This document shows positions 56,794 to 62,897 of a stretch of 64,000 nucleotides of DNA, one piece after another. The position numbers were made by a program, and so were the translations under genes. The notes under the pieces were generated by a model that worked only from the letters and a program-made list of their open reading frames with translations, did no database searches and was not told the DNA's origin. The number at the start of each line of letters is the position of its first letter. Position 1 is the stretch's first letter. The stretch is taken from sequence record OZ346228.1; one strand, written 5' to 3'. The stretch is from a phage.

Positions 56794-57144
56794 TCAGTAG
56801 ATGTTTTGTTTAATCTCTATTCCAAACTTCTTGAATGAGTCAGCAGCAAGCATAAATTTACGAGCTGCCGATGGATTAGAAGTATGCACGAAAATAATCA
56901 CGTTGTCAATAAGTGGTGGCTTTCCGAATACAAGTTTCTCCTCTAGCGCAGAGAAGCAGTCGTACCCTTCAAGCACTTCACCTAGATCATTGTCAAAATA
57001 CCACTCAGATACGCGTCTGTAGAGCTTTCTCTTATCATTAAGAAAATCCATAAACTCAGAAGAATTCTTTAGCCACAGAGCGTCTGGGAGTCCATAATCT
57101 GACGGATCTCTAAAATCATCAAGCCACACAATCCACTTCTTCAT
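56794..57144 (-). CDS. hypothetical protein
   Basis: ORF overlapping RNA ligase stop. Confidence 0.45.
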   Translation of the reverse strand: MKKWIVWLDDFRDPSDYGLPDALWLKNSSEFMDFLNDKRKLYRRVSEWYFDNDLGEVLEGYDCFSALEEKLVFGKPPLIDNVIIFVHTSNPSAARKFMLAADSFKKFGIEIKQNIY

Positions 57145-58076
57145 TGCATATAGTCCTCGTTGTGGAAATAGTAGTCCAGTATCTCACGACGCTCCTGCTC
57201 TAATAAGCAATTCCACACATCTTCTGTATAGTTGCTACGAATAAATTTTACCATACCGTAAAACTCTTCGTCAACACGTTTAAAGATATCATCATCCCAA
57301 ATCTTCCAAGCTTTACCCCTCATTACTGCCTTCCGTGCCAGATAGTATGGAGACTTGATCTTCAGCTGCAGATCATAAGGGTAGTAAGGCTTACGAATCA
57401 TATACCCTTCACCTCTTGTTTCTGCAGCTAATTCTTTTGCATAGCTGAACGGAATTTCACGCACAGTGTTAGGACGTTTTGCACCAAGGTATTTGGCAAT
57501 CCCATCTAAAGCTGCTTCTGGTAGCATTATTCCAGAATCATTATATCTGCAACCTATCAAATATGCGCCATGGTCTTCTTGAACAATATGCGGATCTGAA
57601 GGGTGACAAATTTCAAACATGAATGTCATGTTTTCATTGCCCATAACCTTCTTGATAAGATCTAAATTACCACATTGCTCTTGGATGGTTTCCTTTGCAA
57701 GGTTACAATATGGAGAATCAAGAGACCCGGTTGTTGAGAACAATAGGTCACCTTTATGAGATGATACCACACCAAGGAATCCGTTCTTTTTCTCTACCGC
57801 AGTCACAAGCTTATTGTCAGGCAGGTTGGTGGAGTTTTCTCCCAAGTTAAACACTTTTGTGAAGGGCCATGCCACAACATTTCCTTCATTACCTACAACA
57901 ATGCCTCGGCACTCCAGTAAACGAGGGGACAAATGCCATAAATTGTTGTAAAATACTTTTCTAGCATATTTATAGATCTTTAACCCGAGATCTGGGTAAT
58001 ACCTACTGGTTACAAGACCTTTGTCAACTAGGTCGTCTGCATTAAAATACTTCATTATATGTTCCTCATTTGTCAT
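57141..58076 (-). CDS. RNA ligase, T4 Rnl1-like
   Basis: LLECRGI, KVFNLGEN, motif I EKKNG, motif IV EGYMIRK, motif V LQLKIK colinear with T4 RNA ligase 1. Confidence 0.8.
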   Translation of the reverse strand: MTNEEHIMKYFNADDLVDKGLVTSRYYPDLGLKIYKYARKVFYNNLWHLSPRLLECRGIVVGNEGNVVAWPFTKVFNLGENSTNLPDNKLVTAVEKKNGFLGVVSSHKGDLLFSTTGSLDSPYCNLAKETIQEQCGNLDLIKKVMGNENMTFMFEICHPSDPHIVQEDHGAYLIGCRYNDSGIMLPEAALDGIAKYLGAKRPNTVREIPFSYAKELAAETRGEGYMIRKPYYPYDLQLKIKSPYYLARKAVMRGKAWKIWDDDIFKRVDEEFYGMVKFIRSNYTEDVWNCLLEQERREILDYYFHNEDYMQ

Positions 58077-58118
58077 TTTGTCAGTCTATCCTGCCACACA
58101 AATAACCTAGTGTCAACA

Positions 58119-58147
58119 CTTGAAATTAACAAAACAGTTAGGTATAC
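58119..58147 (+). promoter_or_regulatory. sigma70-type promoter in divergent intergenic region
   Basis: TTGAAA, 17 nt spacer, TATACT. Confidence 0.6.
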
Positions 58148-58176
58148 TACCGTTGAAATTAAAACGGAGGGTCGCT

Positions 58177-58587
58177 ATGTCTAAAATGCTATATATCGTG
58201 CGTGGTCTACCAGGGTCTGGCAAATCAACACTGGCAAATGAGCTATCTTTAGAGGGTCTGTATCCACATTTTGAGAACGACATGTTCTGGTATGACGATG
58301 ACGGCAATTACAACTGGGATGCAAGTAAAGTAACACTCGCAGCAAAATGGTGCAAAGATAACGTAGAAGATATGATGCGTATGGGATACGACCGTATCGT
58401 GGTAAGTAATACGTTTACAAAAGAAAAACATGTGCAGGAATATGTTGACATGGCAATCACTCACGGGTATAGTTATACCGTGATCGTGGTTGAAAACCGC
58501 CACGGTAATAAAAGCATTCATGATGTTCCAGACAAGGTTGTGGATCGTATGGAACGCCAGCTTAAAAACTGCATTAAACTTAAATGA
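58177..58587 (+). CDS. P-loop polynucleotide kinase-like protein (T4 Pnk kinase-domain-like)
   Basis: RBS ggaggg; Walker A GLPGSGKST; N-terminus parallels T4 Pnk MKKIILTIGCPGSGKSTWA. Confidence 0.6.
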   Translation: MSKMLYIVRGLPGSGKSTLANELSLEGLYPHFENDMFWYDDDGNYNWDASKVTLAAKWCKDNVEDMMRMGYDRIVVSNTFTKEKHVQEYVDMAITHGYSYTVIVVENRHGNKSIHDVPDKVVDRMERQLKNCIKLK

Positions 58588-58594
58588 GGAATGT

Positions 58595-59149
58595 ATGAAA
58601 TACTTTGTAACAAGCGACACACACTTTCTCCACCAGCGGGTCATGGAGTTTGATTCATGTCAAAAACACAGATCTCAGTATGATCACAATCTTGACAGTA
58701 TGAATGCAGGAATCATCGCCGAGTGGAACTCTGTTGTGTCACCTGCAGACACTGTGTTCCACTTGGGAGATATTGCGTGCACTAATGATAAGAATATCAA
58801 CAACTTACTTCCAGATATTCTAAATATGTTGAACGGACATATTATTCTTGTTCGTGGCAACCATGACACAAGGACGACTGTCAGAATTATGAAAGAGTTC
58901 GGTCATGAGGTTGTAGATTATTACGAGCTTCGCCACAACAAGAATTTGATCTGTATGAGCCATTACCAGTTTGCAAAGTGGAACAGAAAGCCTCACGGAT
59001 CAGTCCAACTGTTCGGTCATGCTCACGGAACCACACAACAGTTGTTTGGCAGGCAGCTTGATGTCGGTTGGGATGTGTGGGGGAGACTCTTACCATTAGA
59101 AGAGGCATACCGTATTGCAATGAGTTTTGATATTGACAGCAGGGAGTAA
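58595..59149 (+). CDS. calcineurin-like metallophosphoesterase
   Basis: SDTHF, GDIACTND and VRGNHD motifs; RBS gagga before ATG (MKYFVTSD...). Confidence 0.75.
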   Translation: MKYFVTSDTHFLHQRVMEFDSCQKHRSQYDHNLDSMNAGIIAEWNSVVSPADTVFHLGDIACTNDKNINNLLPDILNMLNGHIILVRGNHDTRTTVRIMKEFGHEVVDYYELRHNKNLICMSHYQFAKWNRKPHGSVQLFGHAHGTTQQLFGRQLDVGWDVWGRLLPLEEAYRIAMSFDIDSRE

Positions 59150-59196: not shown

Positions 59197-59547
59197 ATGA
59201 AAGATGGGGATAAGCTGCTATATCTTAAAGTCCCCCTTGAAATACTATCTATGTCAAAAGTTTTGAATGACACAACTGGGGAGGTTGTTGTTCTTGACTT
59301 GTATGACAAGATCGTATACTGCTACCTGCACAACTGGTATAAGCTTGGAGGAAATTCACGCTTCACACCAAGCACAAGGAAAATTGCAGCAGATGTTGGG
59401 ATAAAGAAAACAAAAGCAGCAGCGTGCGTTAAAACTTTAGAATGTGCAGGAGTGGTTGAAACATCCACACAAGGGAGAGGTAAAAGATGCACATTTTCCA
59501 AAGTTTTGCCACCAGAAGAAGTTATTCGGATGTCAACAACTGGTTAG
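59197..59547 (+). CDS. putative DNA-binding regulator (winged-helix-like), tentative
   Basis: HTH-like segment STRKIAADVGIKKTKAAACVKTLECAGVV; followed by palindromic operator array. Confidence 0.4.
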   Translation: MKDGDKLLYLKVPLEILSMSKVLNDTTGEVVVLDLYDKIVYCYLHNWYKLGGNSRFTPSTRKIAADVGIKKTKAAACVKTLECAGVVETSTQGRGKRCTFSKVLPPEEVIRMSTTG

Positions 59548-59619
59548 ACCAGTAAAAACTTAAATATCTGTACTATAAGGATTCGTATGTTTTATGTTCG
59601 CCATGGAACGGATACTATT

Positions 59620-59705
59620 AACTGTCCGTGATACGGACACTACTGTCCGTCACGCGGACACATCTGCCCGTAATACGGACACTAACTGTCCGTGATACGG
59701 ACACA
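59620..59705. promoter_or_regulatory. four tandem palindromic operator-like sites
   Basis: GTCCGTgatACGGAC (59624-59638), GTCCGTcacgCGGAC, GCCCGTaatACGGAC, GTCCGTgatACGGAC (59688-59702), centre-to-centre about 21 bp. Confidence 0.6.
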
Positions 59706-59825
59706 TAAAGAATATAACTAAAATAACTAAATAATAAAAAATAAAAGATCTAGTACTTATGGTACTAAGTACATATACTTAACTTATGTAGAATATACTA
59801 GATCCTAAGTACCATGTTTTAAATT

Positions 59826-60110
59826 TATTACTTACTATGGGCAGTGTCGGCCCTTCATTGGCACTCGCCTACGAGGGGGCGAGATGCCGGGCCTCCTTGG
59901 CGCACACAATAACAGAAGTTCATACATGCAGGTCTGTTAACATGTGTGGGAGCGAAGCGATAGCGCAGGCCAAAGGCCGAGCACTGATGTGGACCACCGA
60001 CGAAAGCTTGCCAGCGCCGTAAGGAGTCGGTTGAGAGTCTCCCGCGCGAGCTTGGATGAAGTTTATGTGTGGAAACTGACAAGAAGGCCCCTAAATCGCT
60101 CCACAGCTAT
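59826..60110. other. GC-rich non-coding island, candidate structured RNA
   Basis: Abrupt rise in GC relative to flanking AT-rich DNA; hairpins such as cgcc-tacgaggg-ggcg; no convincing ORF or RBS. Confidence 0.35.
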
Positions 60111-60797: not shown

Positions 60798-60986
60798 ATG
60801 AACAACCCGGTAGCAAAGAACTGTAATAAGTTCAACAAGTCTGCAATTCACACTGACAGGAAAAAGAGCTGGTCTCCTGACATTGACGAGGAGCTTGAGA
60901 GTTACTTTGAAGACCTGGTCACTAATGCAGATGAGGTTGCGATTAAAGAATACGCAGACAGGAAGGATAAGGCCGGAATCTGTTGA
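60798..60986 (+). CDS. hypothetical protein
   Basis: RBS gaggag before ATG (MNNPVAK...). Confidence 0.45.
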   Translation: MNNPVAKNCNKFNKSAIHTDRKKSWSPDIDEELESYFEDLVTNADEVAIKEYADRKDKAGIC

Positions 60987-61062
60987 CAAAAATAGTGTTA
61001 CCTGATAAGATCTGCAATATGATGTGATGCAATTTTAACTTACGAGGTCTACAGGTAATGCT

Positions 61063-61305
61063 ATGTTTAAGGTTAAGCTCGTTTTTCGTTCCATGAATGA
61101 GGATTATTTAGAAGATGAAGGTGAATTTCGTGCACTGGATGATGCAATAGATTTTGCCAACGACTTAGCTTGTATGAATACGGGTTATGGGCTATGCTGT
61201 TGGGATGGTGGTGTTCAGATCGGTGATAGCAAGATCTTCTACTTCTACCCTGAACCTGATAACAAACAAATTAAGTATGTTTTATTTATTTGTGCTTTAC
61301 AATGA
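61063..61305 (+). CDS. hypothetical protein
   Basis: RBS-like gaggt; 80 aa. Confidence 0.45.
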   Translation: MFKVKLVFRSMNEDYLEDEGEFRALDDAIDFANDLACMNTGYGLCCWDGGVQIGDSKIFYFYPEPDNKQIKYVLFICALQ

Positions 61306-61329
61306 GGTTGTTTTCGTGTATCATGATGA

Positions 61330-61590
61330 ATATCCAATTTAAAGATGAATTTGATGGCTTTATCTCCGGATGCTTTGAAACAGGGTTCGGAGAAGGCTGA
61401 GTTCCCCTTAGAGGGCTTGATAGTGCACCACACTTAAAATGGTAGGGGCAGCCAGCACATGACGATGTGACCCCAGCCAACCTGTAATAAGGTCGAGCCA
61501 AAGTGCGGTAATGGGCTCTGGTAACCCACTTGTTGGGTCTTGCTGGTCCAGGACGCTGGACAAGTCGCAGGGAATACCACCCTGCGGCGA
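61330..61590. other. second GC-rich non-coding island, candidate structured RNA or leader
   Basis: GC-rich, hairpins cgcaggg-aatacca-ccctgcg and gtccag-gacg-ctggac; overlapping ORFs on both strands lack RBS. Confidence 0.3.
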
Positions 61591-61592
61591 AC

Positions 61593-61621
61593 TTGACAAT
61601 CAGTATTTGCTATGATAAAAT
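61593..61621 (+). promoter_or_regulatory. sigma70-type promoter followed by 12 bp perfect palindrome TATCACGTGATA (61627-61638)
   Basis: TTGACA, 17 nt spacer, TAAAAT. Confidence 0.65.
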
Positions 61622-61649
61622 CCACCTATCACGTGATAATGGAGGAAAC

Positions 61650-61988
61650 ATGGCGGATACAACTAAAAAGCGTCGCCGTAGAGGCAGACCTCTGAAAGAG
61701 GAGTCCAACGCCATTCAGCTAGAGAAGAACATCCTTGATATGAAGGAATCTTTTATAGCGATGGTTCCAGAAGCTCACAAAGTTTTAAGAGAGCTGATGT
61801 TGGACCCGAAAACCAAACAAAATATTCGTCAAAGCATTGCAGAGTATGTTCTTGATAAGGCAGACCGAATGCAGGAAGAATATGATGAGATGTTTGGTGA
61901 AGAGGAAGAGGTGGTAGTAGAAGAGGCTGAAAAACCAGCACCTTTTATGCCATTCACCACAGAAATACAGCCTGTTGGCAATAGTTAA
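61650..61988 (+). CDS. small basic/acidic DNA-binding-like protein
   Basis: RBS ggagg; N-terminal KKRRRRGRPLKE (AT-hook-like), acidic C-terminus. Confidence 0.55.
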   Translation: MADTTKKRRRRGRPLKEESNAIQLEKNILDMKESFIAMVPEAHKVLRELMLDPKTKQNIRQSIAEYVLDKADRMQEEYDEMFGEEEEVVVEEAEKPAPFMPFTTEIQPVGNS

Positions 61989-61997
61989 AATATTTTC

Positions 61998-62026
61998 TTG
62001 ACAAACTTTGCTTAACAGTGTAATAT
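61998..62026 (+). promoter_or_regulatory. sigma70-type promoter upstream of tRNA cluster
   Basis: TTGACA, 17 nt spacer, TAATAT. Confidence 0.65.
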
Positions 62027-62084
62027 TGTAAACATGGTCTCCCACCTTTTCTGGCGGCTAAGGTGTAAAAGAAAGCCACCCAGT

Positions 62085-62159
62085 GCCCTGTTAGCTTAGT
62101 GGATAAAGCAGCGGCCTTCTAAGCCGTTGACACTGGTTCGAGTCCAGTACGGGGTGCCA
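62085..62159 (+). tRNA. tRNA-Arg (anticodon TCT)
   Basis: Manual fold: D stem GCTT/AAGC, anticodon loop CTTCTAA, T loop TTCGAGT, 3' CCA encoded; acceptor stem has two G-U pairs. Confidence 0.7.
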
Positions 62160-62163
62160 AATT

Positions 62164-62250
62164 GGGGAGTTATCCCGTAGAGGTAGCGGTGTAGACTGTA
62201 AATCTATTGTCATTGCGACTCGGGTGGTTCGACTCCACCACTCCCCACCA
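62164..62250 (+). tRNA. tRNA-Tyr (anticodon GTA), long variable arm
   Basis: Acceptor GGGGAGT/ACTCCCC, anticodon loop CTGTAAA, T loop TTCGACT, CCA encoded. Confidence 0.8.
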
Positions 62251-62364
62251 AATTTATATTTTTAGATGCATAAATAATACAGATAATGGCATTGATATTT
62301 ATCGTCGTTTATACTAGTCACTAACTGCTCGAAAATCAGTGTCATTATCAGTATTATTTATAAA

Positions 62365-62455
62365 GGAGGGTAGGGAGCAATGGTGCTCAATCGGTCTTGA
62401 AAACCGTCCCGTTGAGGATGACTCGATGATGGTTCGATTCCATTACTCTCCGCCA
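62365..62455 (+). tRNA. tRNA-Ser (anticodon TGA), long variable arm
   Basis: Acceptor GGAGGGT/ACTCTCC, anticodon loop CTTGAAA, T loop TTCGATT, CCA encoded. Confidence 0.7.
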
Positions 62456-62553
62456 CATTGTTGACCTTGTAATTAAGCGAAAGTCGGAAGCAGAACCGGA
62501 TTATCAAATGTTACAGTCGTCATCGCCGACTAGCAACATGGTCAACATACTGA

Positions 62554-62652
62554 GCTAGGTAAGCCCTTTGGCAAGGGCGAGGATTTTTAATCCTGAAAAT
62601 AGACGAGGTAGTCGTTGAATACATAGGTGGTTCGATTCCATCACCTAGCACC
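62554..62652 (+). tRNA. atypical tRNA-like gene; anticodon loop TTTTTAA (Lys-TTT-like), about 28 nt extra between anticodon and T arms; may be a pseudo-tRNA
   Basis: Acceptor GCTAGGT/ACCTAGC, D arm GCCC-TTTGGCAA-GGGC, T loop TTCGATT; variable region far longer than class I; CCA not fully encoded. Confidence 0.35.
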
Positions 62653-62657
62653 TTTTT

Positions 62658-62733
62658 GCTGATGTAGCACAATCGGTAGTGCAATTGATTTGTAATCAAT
62701 AGGTTGTAGGTTCAAGTCCTGCCATCAGCACCA
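62658..62733 (+). tRNA. tRNA-Thr (anticodon TGT)
   Basis: Acceptor GCTGATG/CATCAGC, anticodon stem-loop ATTGA-TTTGTAA-TCAAT, T loop TTCAAGT, CCA encoded. Confidence 0.8.
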
Positions 62734-62734
62734 A

Positions 62735-62809
62735 GGCCCTGTAGCTGGAAGGTTCAAGCAAGCGACTCATAATCGCCAGACGGTGGTTCAATTCCACCCA
62801 GGGCCACCA
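62735..62809 (+). tRNA. tRNA-Met/Ile2-type (anticodon CAT)
   Basis: Acceptor GGCCCTG/CAGGGCC, anticodon loop CTCATAA, T loop TTCAATT, CCA encoded. Confidence 0.8.
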
Positions 62810-62820
62810 AATAGTAAATA

Positions 62821-62897
62821 CTCCGCGTAGCTCAGCTTGGTAGAGCGCCTGATTTGGGATCAGGAGGTCGAGTGTTCGAATCACTCCGTGGAGACCA
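62821..62897 (+). tRNA. tRNA-Pro (anticodon TGG)
   Basis: C1-G72 acceptor, D stem GCTC/GAGC, anticodon stem-loop CCTGA-TTTGGGA-TCAGG, T loop TTCGAAT, CCA encoded. Confidence 0.8.

Follow-up and report, generated by a model that had tools for sequence, protein, structure and literature searches.

The GC-rich island near the 3' end of the window (the whole 64,000-nt stretch of phage DNA analyzed here, sequence record OZ346228.1) carries a widely conserved RNA motif, and it is this island, and not the palindrome that follows it, that is the main object of interest at the locus. We consider it rather probable that the island specifies a structured RNA of the tRNA region, namely, a stable small RNA or RNA domain that would be recognized by a host component. 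An earlier note on this DNA had drawn attention to the same segment but had assigned the regulatory role to a palindrome at the downstream promoter.

The region from 60900 to 62100 shares 99 to 100% identity with Vequintavirus (rV5-like) phages, and the island sequence is 100% identical to that of rV5 (DQ832317). The GC content is 0.545 at 61400 to 61599, compared with about 0.37 to 0.43 on the flanks. The GC-rich segment that the earlier note had placed at 61330 to 61640 is thus present, but the rise in GC content begins near 61400 and not at 61330. The sequence from 61302 to 61400 is AT rich, and relatives annotate a 32-amino-acid mini-ORF there, the start of which overlaps the stop codon of ORF75 (ATGA). 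A segment of this mini-ORF, AAAGATGAATTTGATGGCTTT (KDEFDGF), is kept at the nucleotide level in L024-type phages, in which it forms an 8-codon ORF just 5' of the RNA's own promoter. The stretch from 61400 to 61600 is, depending on the related record, unannotated, part of a TTG-start extension of ORF74, or part of a minus-strand ORF. The two features that frame the locus are as follows.

61302-61400, plus strand: probable 32-amino-acid mini-ORF, annotated in relatives; upstream limit of the RNA domain
61405-61587 (approximate), plus strand: island RNA, GC rich, with multiple hairpins

The center of the island RNA is a compact three-way junction with the following parts.

61473-61520, plus strand: core three-way-junction motif of roughly 48 nt (P4/P5/P6), scoring 70.6 bits with covariance model R1
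61476-61478 with 61514-61516, plus strand: core helix P4
61480-61483 with 61490-61493, plus strand: core helix P5, loop GUAAUA
61497-61499 with 61503-61506, plus strand: core helix P6, with U61504 bulged
A61479, CGA 61494-61496, and GGUAAUG 61507-61513, plus strand: junction strands of the core

Model R1 matches the window over its full length (model positions 1 to 48; E value of about 6e-20); P4, P5, and P6 are paired, and CCUGU...AAGG and GGUAA are both present, making this copy a member of the family that R1 defines. Comparison between lineages revealed that the junction and loop nucleotides of the core are nearly invariant (CCUGURNNAAGG ... GGUAA) and that the flanks covary. The covariation is decisive support that the hairpins exceed chance. 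(i) Among 30 distinct versions, which form an effectively ungapped alignment, 88.7% of the cells were paired versus 23 to 37% in slid controls, and the covariation was 0.246 versus 0.076 ± 0.017 in shuffles, none of 500 of which reached the observed value. (ii) Among 50 distinct sequences, 94.7% of the cells were paired and the covariation was 0.312 versus 0.082, a value again reached by 0 of 500 shuffles; these shuffle statistics ignore the relatedness of the sequences, and the 51-sequence alignment was fitted to model R1. (iii) The two inner P4 pairs were kept in all 50 sequences, with 3 and 5 pair types, respectively, the outer P5 pair was AU, GC, or CG, and the middle P6 pair was CG, UA, or GC. 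The pair types in the core derive from clearly independent lineages. Two further pairings were rejected. The P4 pair 3-46 was unpaired in 23 of the 30 sequences and was dropped, and a pseudoknot pairing the P5 loop with the 3' tail, which looked convincing in T4-like phages (UGUAA/UUACA and UGUGA/UCACA), was no better than the control across the family (4.4 versus 4.2).

Since R1 finds exactly one copy in the window, the first GC-rich island (59840 to 60100; GC content of about 0.53) is ruled out as a second copy of the motif. That segment is conserved only in rV5-like phages (119 records, 87 to 99.6% identity) and contains a small ORF in some annotations. Other features were observed upstream of it. 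An ORF at 59197 to 59547 matches a PHROG family annotated as "replication initiation protein" (winged helix-turn-helix [wHTH]), and 3' of it four tandem repeats of 21 to 22 bp, each with the palindrome TGTCCGTGATACGGACA, lie at 59619 to 59704 and are followed by an AT-rich tract; judged by this arrangement, the segment from 59197 to 59840 looks like an iteron-type replication origin. At 57141 to 59149, an RNA-ligase-like ORF on the minus strand, a P-loop kinase-like ORF, and a phosphoesterase adjoin the tRNA region. With annotations taken from relatives, these three genes resemble an RNA or tRNA repair set.

Outside the core, the island contains these elements.

61405-61443, plus strand: 5' conserved block with hairpins 61405-61407/61413-61415 and 61427-61430/61440-61443
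61445-61474, plus strand: stem Pa (61445-61448/61471-61474) enclosing Hp1 (61456-61460/61465-61469, loop GACG), compensated between lineages
61524-61538, plus strand: H3 (ACCCA, loop cuugu, UGGGU), in which an A-U pair becomes U-A in L041
61546-61561, plus strand: H4 (GUCCAG, loop gacg, CUGGAC), in which 3 of 6 pairs change on both sides (L041 and FV3)
61566-61586, plus strand: H5 (CGCAGGG, loop aauacca, CCCUGCG), in which the stem is invariant and the loop alone varies

The islands of eight Vequintavirus genomes align with few indels, and a ten-helix model of 44 pairs was paired in 308 of 308 cells. Six of these pairs change on both sides, and none does so in any slid control, so that the earlier description of the island as hairpin rich is borne out. 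The 5' block is nearly identical in rV5-type and L024-type phages, though the flanks differ; both of its hairpins, like the H5 stem, are invariant in the set and hence without covariation support. Hp1 and Pa have been wholly rewritten between these two types with the pairing kept. As read from the sequences, Hp1 is CACAU/AUGUG in rV5 and CUACG/CGUAG in L024, and Pa is GGGG/CCCC in rV5, GGAAC/GUUCC in L024, and GGGAA/UUCCC in T4. A variable hairpin 5' of the core is found in most lineages, with a modest folding z-score (mean of -0.6), and the L024-type phages carry GCUGG/CCAGC at the position equivalent to H4. The rV5 pairings GAGCC/GGCUC and CCAAC/GUUGG were contradicted by L041 and discarded. 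With regard to the strand, H4 has U-G wobbles in three genomes; such G-U and U-G pairs would be mismatches on the minus strand, and the RNA is therefore read from the plus strand. Single-sequence folding gave modest z-scores of -2.0 for the plus strand and -1.4 for the minus strand against shuffles. H5 lacks a U-tract and is therefore not an intrinsic terminator (the sequence 3' of it is GCGAACUUGAC), and no terminator-like sites were found at 61330 to 61650.

Some annotations take the island to be protein coding, since JLBYU08 carries a 152-amino-acid "putative regulatory protein" starting from TTG and NHEP1 carries a minus-strand CDS. The TTG-start extension, however, has in-frame stops in L041 and FV3, which arise from the same substitutions that preserve the pairing of H4, and the islands of different genomes differ by indels of 1 to 4 nt. 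The earlier view of the island as untranslated thus holds. A function at the DNA level, such as an origin or a pac site, could be suggested by the Rep-like gene with iterons 1.8 kb upstream. Both ideas are at odds with substitutions that are compensatory within stems and with the occurrence of the same core in unrelated genomic contexts, and we regard a coding sequence or DNA site as extremely improbable. On the basis of sequence comparison, the island is an untranslated, multihairpin RNA domain on the plus strand, the core of which is a phage RNA motif.

The core occurs in about 1,000 GenBank phages, including T4-like, rV5-like, and other phages, usually with one copy per genome. A sensitive BLAST search with the island alone retrieved 981 phage records. 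The 119 full-length matches were rV5-like phages; about 860 records matched only 43 nt (61473 to 61515) at 90 to 97% identity and corresponded to T4-like phages of several genera and to a handful of unrelated phages, among them Ivi (44.9 kb) and SF1-1 (146 kb). The strict core was found at 26 IMG/VR loci, and a more permissive pattern search of IMG/VR, with R1 as a filter, contributed another 26 members, some of them divergent and one from a 359-kb jumbo-phage contig. Among 185,579 bacterial and archaeal species genomes, the strict core gave only 4 chance-like matches, in GC-rich DNA. A blastn search of 5,426 E. coli genomes gave no match, and a host origin or an antisense target was rejected on this basis. 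In the collections scanned, only phage and viral sequences carry the motif. Tandem pairs spaced by about 86 to 114 nt were observed in L027 (5092 to 5250), L031 (9021 to 9180), and L144 (830 to 962). Much of the covariation in P5 and P6 comes from the second copy of the Karam-like phages L027 and L031, which is divergent (40 to 46 bits).

Outside the T4-like phages, the motif is associated with tRNA genes: in 18 of about 22 lineages, the distance to a tRNA gene is 27 to 1,034 nt, and in all of these cases the two share a strand. In the window, ARAGORN and Rfam identified seven tRNAs at 62085 to 62897, and a tRNA-Arg gene starts 574 nt downstream of the motif on the same strand. One gene of this cluster region, at 62554 to 62652 (99 nt), is tRNA-like and has an odd anticodon loop; it is called "tRNA-???" by ARAGORN, scores 35.5 bits with the Rfam tRNA model, and is annotated in relatives as tRNA-Stop(tta) or tRNA-OTHER. 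Contigs of roughly 46 kb have an ORF-free region of about 900 nt that is led by a promoter and has tRNA genes at its end; the motif is found there among several modules, each enclosed by a stem. This arrangement, a promoter-led operon of RNA modules before tRNA genes, was observed at 1720 to 2460 in L029 and also in L006, L022, L032, and L020; the module at 2211 to 2330 of L029 is itself tRNA-like, with 21 bits against Rfam tRNA-Sec. Long inverted repeats flanking the modules of these contigs carry UGCUCUU(U/A), which we take to match the boxA antitermination consensus. No protein family was found to be shared near the motif across 20 lineages (blastp, 1e-5).

Given this association, the motif could be an element for the processing, stability, or antitermination of the tRNA operon, recognized by a host RNase or, like a put or nut site, by RNA polymerase. 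Its proximity to tRNA genes in the same orientation, together with the boxA-like repeats around the modules of the 46-kb contigs, fits such a role, and the frozen core would be accounted for if host machinery recognizes the motif. We nevertheless give this explanation little credence, because (i) there is one copy per genome and not one per transcription unit or tRNA, (ii) the motif of T4-like phages lies 5 to 8 kb from the tRNA cluster, and (iii) GAP31-type phages with 19 to 23 tRNAs in the examined locus have no copy there. The tRNA cluster of these GAP31-type Vequintavirinae includes the ORF74 homologue, and the slot taken by the island in rV5 is filled with tRNA genes; in L154 to L157 the homologue is embedded in clusters of 8 to 23 tRNA genes, and in L155 to L157 a 471- to 485-amino-acid protein with Pfam PF26128 (Gad2) follows the cluster.

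Phage tRNA clusters can counter anticodon nucleases, and the location of the motif in such clusters is compatible with a decoy or inhibitor of a host defense nuclease that targets tRNAs. The P5 loop (CUGUAA) resembles the anticodon loop of tRNA-Tyr, its variants GUA, GUG, and GCA read like anticodons, and the window has RNA-repair-like genes nearby. However, the motif is not called by ARAGORN or by the Rfam tRNA model, the supported 4-bp P5 stem leaves a loop of 6 nt and not 7, and a core that is frozen in phages of many hosts contrasts with the sporadic occurrence of defense nucleases. A decoy function therefore appears highly unlikely.

The sequence 3' of the island contains the features given below.

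61593-61621, plus strand: P74, sigma-70-type promoter (TTGACA at 61593-61598, 17-nt spacer, TAAAAT at 61616-61621 preceded by TG, i.e., an extended -10)
61627-61638, strand not applicable: perfect palindrome TATCACGTGATA, at about +1 to +12 of P74
61641-61645, plus strand: Shine-Dalgarno sequence GGAGG, just 3' of the palindrome
61650-61988, plus strand: ORF74, 112 amino acids, PHROG 3330, ATG at 61650

The consensus-like promoter proposed in the earlier note is well founded. P74, labeled as such in the rV5 GenBank record, matches 11 of 12 consensus positions in addition to the TG, is invariant in eight Vequintavirus genomes, and has the counterparts TTGACA-17-TAAACT in L024-type and TTGACA-17-TAACAT in GAP31-type phages, its position being conserved across three Vequintavirinae groups. 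We regard P74 as a genuine sigma-70-type promoter, with predicted activity, that would serve ORF74 and be separate from the RNA. The L024-type phages have one promoter (11/12) directly 5' of the RNA and the ORF74 promoter directly 3' of it, with about 170 nt between them and no terminator in this interval; L043 has a promoter (11/12), about 170 nt of RNA, and the second promoter. In these closest divergent relatives, the RNA would accordingly be transcribed from its own strong promoter, and in rV5-type phages it would most likely be made by read-through from one or several upstream early promoters. Since there is no terminator before ORF74 or before the tRNA cluster 574 nt downstream, the RNA belongs to the tRNA-operon region.

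The perfect 12-bp palindrome is located as the earlier note had predicted, at the transcription start of P74. In a reading that extends the note's proposal of an operator, the island is a spacer and the palindrome is the operator through which ORF74 or another phage protein would control P74. This proposal draws on the perfection of the palindrome, its position at +1 to +12 of a strong promoter, and its invariance in the eight Vequintavirus genomes. Relatives also carry other inverted repeats around the equivalent promoter, and one of these, in the promoter spacer of GAP31-type phages, covaries (CAGAG/CTCTG and CAGATG/CATCTG). The operator role did not find support beyond this, however. Perfect 12-bp palindromes occur in the window at chance level (19 observed versus 17.1 ± 4.1 expected), no second copy of TATCACGTGATA was found in the 64 kb and none beyond chance when 2 mismatches were allowed, and L024-type and GAP31-type relatives have retained the promoter and the gene but not the palindrome. 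ORF74 starts with MADTTKKRRRRGRP and has an Arg-rich N terminus and an acidic C terminus; an Arg-rich tail precedes the invariant N-terminal block GRPLKEESNAIQLEKN. ORF74 is predicted, at modest confidence (pLDDT of 68, pTM of 0.28), to fold as a helical hairpin, with the Arg-rich N terminus disordered. No HTH or other recognizable DNA-binding fold was seen in the model; Pfam and NCBIfam gave no match, and the PDB matches were insignificant (E values of 0.024 to 0.06). An operator would also leave the covariation and cross-family conservation of the island unexplained. As the palindrome lacks wider conservation and the ORF74 model lacks an HTH, the operator role is possible but unsupported, and we judge it quite improbable as an account of the locus. 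The palindrome is a genus-specific element at the transcription start of P74 and may be either an operator or a 5' hairpin.

In T4-like phages, the motif always lies in the gap directly upstream of vs.8. The T4 copy is found at about 64,855 to 64,902 on the minus strand of NC_000866 (68.1 bits with R1). In the T4 reference, vs.8 is annotated with 219 amino acids, and its N terminus overlaps the motif (NC_000866, about 64,795 to 64,912; L012, 2856 to 2903, minus strand). RB6 and other phages use a vs.8 start about 39 codons farther downstream, an ATG that has a Shine-Dalgarno sequence, and the start in the T4 reference annotation has probably been miscalled. This leader position, which accounts for most copies, fits a cis-acting regulator better than a free RNA. 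Such a sensor or leader, either riboswitch-like or a protein-binding operator, would control vs.8 in T4-like phages and ORF74 and/or tRNAs in rV5. In its favor, every T4-like genome has the motif at a fixed position, 60 to 110 nt upstream of vs.8, another conserved hairpin (GCCA-NGGAA-UGGC) precedes the vs.8 start codon, and the Karam-like phages and L144 have tandem copies. In addition, invariant nucleotides in a small junction are a typical feature of aptamers. These data have to be weighed against several others: (i) the class of downstream gene is inconsistent (vs.8, ORF74, tRNAs, or nothing), (ii) in rV5, P74 lies between the motif and ORF74, so that transcripts from P74 do not contain the motif, (iii) neither a terminator nor an obvious platform sequestering the Shine-Dalgarno sequence was seen, (iv) in many lineages the tRNA is upstream of the motif and not downstream, and (v) the scan of bacterial genomes did not recover the strict core beyond chance-like matches, an unusual situation for a riboswitch class. 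Taken together, we consider a cis-acting sensor unlikely.

We thus favor a stable, possibly processed small RNA or RNA domain through which the motif would act at the RNA level. A conserved host component would recognize the motif RNA, presumably in trans, and this would explain how a frozen core and covarying helices are maintained in unrelated phages that lack a shared phage protein. We infer transcription, processing, stability, trans action, and the host-factor partner from the sequence comparisons. More tentatively, this compact RNA, which virulent phages of several families (T4 among them) carry in their tRNA regions, might represent a new phage-only class of riboregulators or aptamers that lacks a counterpart in bacteria and reprograms the host by binding a small molecule or a bacterial component that is universally conserved; candidate targets in that case include the ribosome, RNA polymerase, and a tRNA-processing or -modifying enzyme. 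If real and functional, the element is a noncoding one that was missed in the best-studied phage, T4, where it was absorbed into an overlong vs.8 ORF, and that would also be unannotated in more than a thousand other genomes, including rV5-like and T4-like phages that are therapeutic candidates. That unrelated virulent phages share a frozen core points to a common host target, which, once found, could reveal a new mechanism of host takeover or counterdefense and could help to explain non-tRNA RNAs in phage tRNA clusters. Model R1 corrects misannotated ORFs, and the locus is an example of how RNA genes can be marked by GC-rich islands in phage genomes that are otherwise AT rich.

The motif is apparently an undescribed, widespread phage RNA family. 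In the window, only tRNAs pass the gathering threshold of Rfam 15, and a permissive Rfam 15 search (E value of ≤10) gave no match on the rV5, L029, T4, and L061 copies. A tRNA cloverleaf was called at 61400 to 61600 neither by ARAGORN nor by Rfam RF00005. Literature searches on the core strings, vs.8, T4 small RNAs, and phage tRNA-cluster RNAs, with most subscription journals outside their scope, yielded no description. Mimicry of rRNA had been prompted by the occurrence of GUAAUA, GGUCGAG, and GCGCGG in the same order in 23S H42 to H44 and by a likeness to the 16S 530 loop; it was rejected, since the best covariance model score against the E. coli rrn operon was 5.9 bits, and Smith-Waterman scores were at or below the shuffle mean (0.52 to 0.99 of the shuffles reached the observed score).

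Several known systems share features with the motif. Similar to purine riboswitches and hammerhead ribozymes, it is a compact three-way junction with conserved junction and loop nucleotides and covarying helices; unlike them, it has helices of 3 to 4 bp, no match to the corresponding Rfam families, and neither an expression platform nor a consistent downstream gene that could be found. The lambda N/nut and HK022 put systems offer a positional likeness only, consisting of an early promoter, an RNA hairpin element, and a small protein with an Arg-rich N terminus (here ORF74), to which the 46-kb contigs add the boxA-like sequences that flank the motif. There is, however, no sequence or family match to these systems, and the ORF74 of GAP31-type phages has no motif upstream. 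PeSL (promoter-early stem-loop) cassettes are short conserved intergenic elements in the hyperplastic regions of T4-type phages; they occur in many copies and contain an early promoter, whereas the motif is present once per genome, and no promoter consensus is seen in its T4 copy. The T4 RNAs rnaC and rnaD (species 1 and 2) are small phage RNAs encoded together with tRNA genes on the same strand. In T4, the motif itself lies about 6 kb away, upstream of vs.8, and with the R1 filters switched off the best score in the T4 tRNA region was 8.5 bits, which excludes rnaC and rnaD as relatives. Finally, drum, ROOL, and GOLLD, said to have been described by Weinberg and colleagues in 2017 and in related work, are reportedly structured orphan RNAs that often occur near tRNA genes of phages and prophages. 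The motif differs from them in having no Rfam 15 match and in the absence of its strict core from bacteria apart from the 4 chance-like matches; it is likewise structured and located near tRNAs and is much smaller, with a core of about 48 nt and a total length of 100 to 190 nt.
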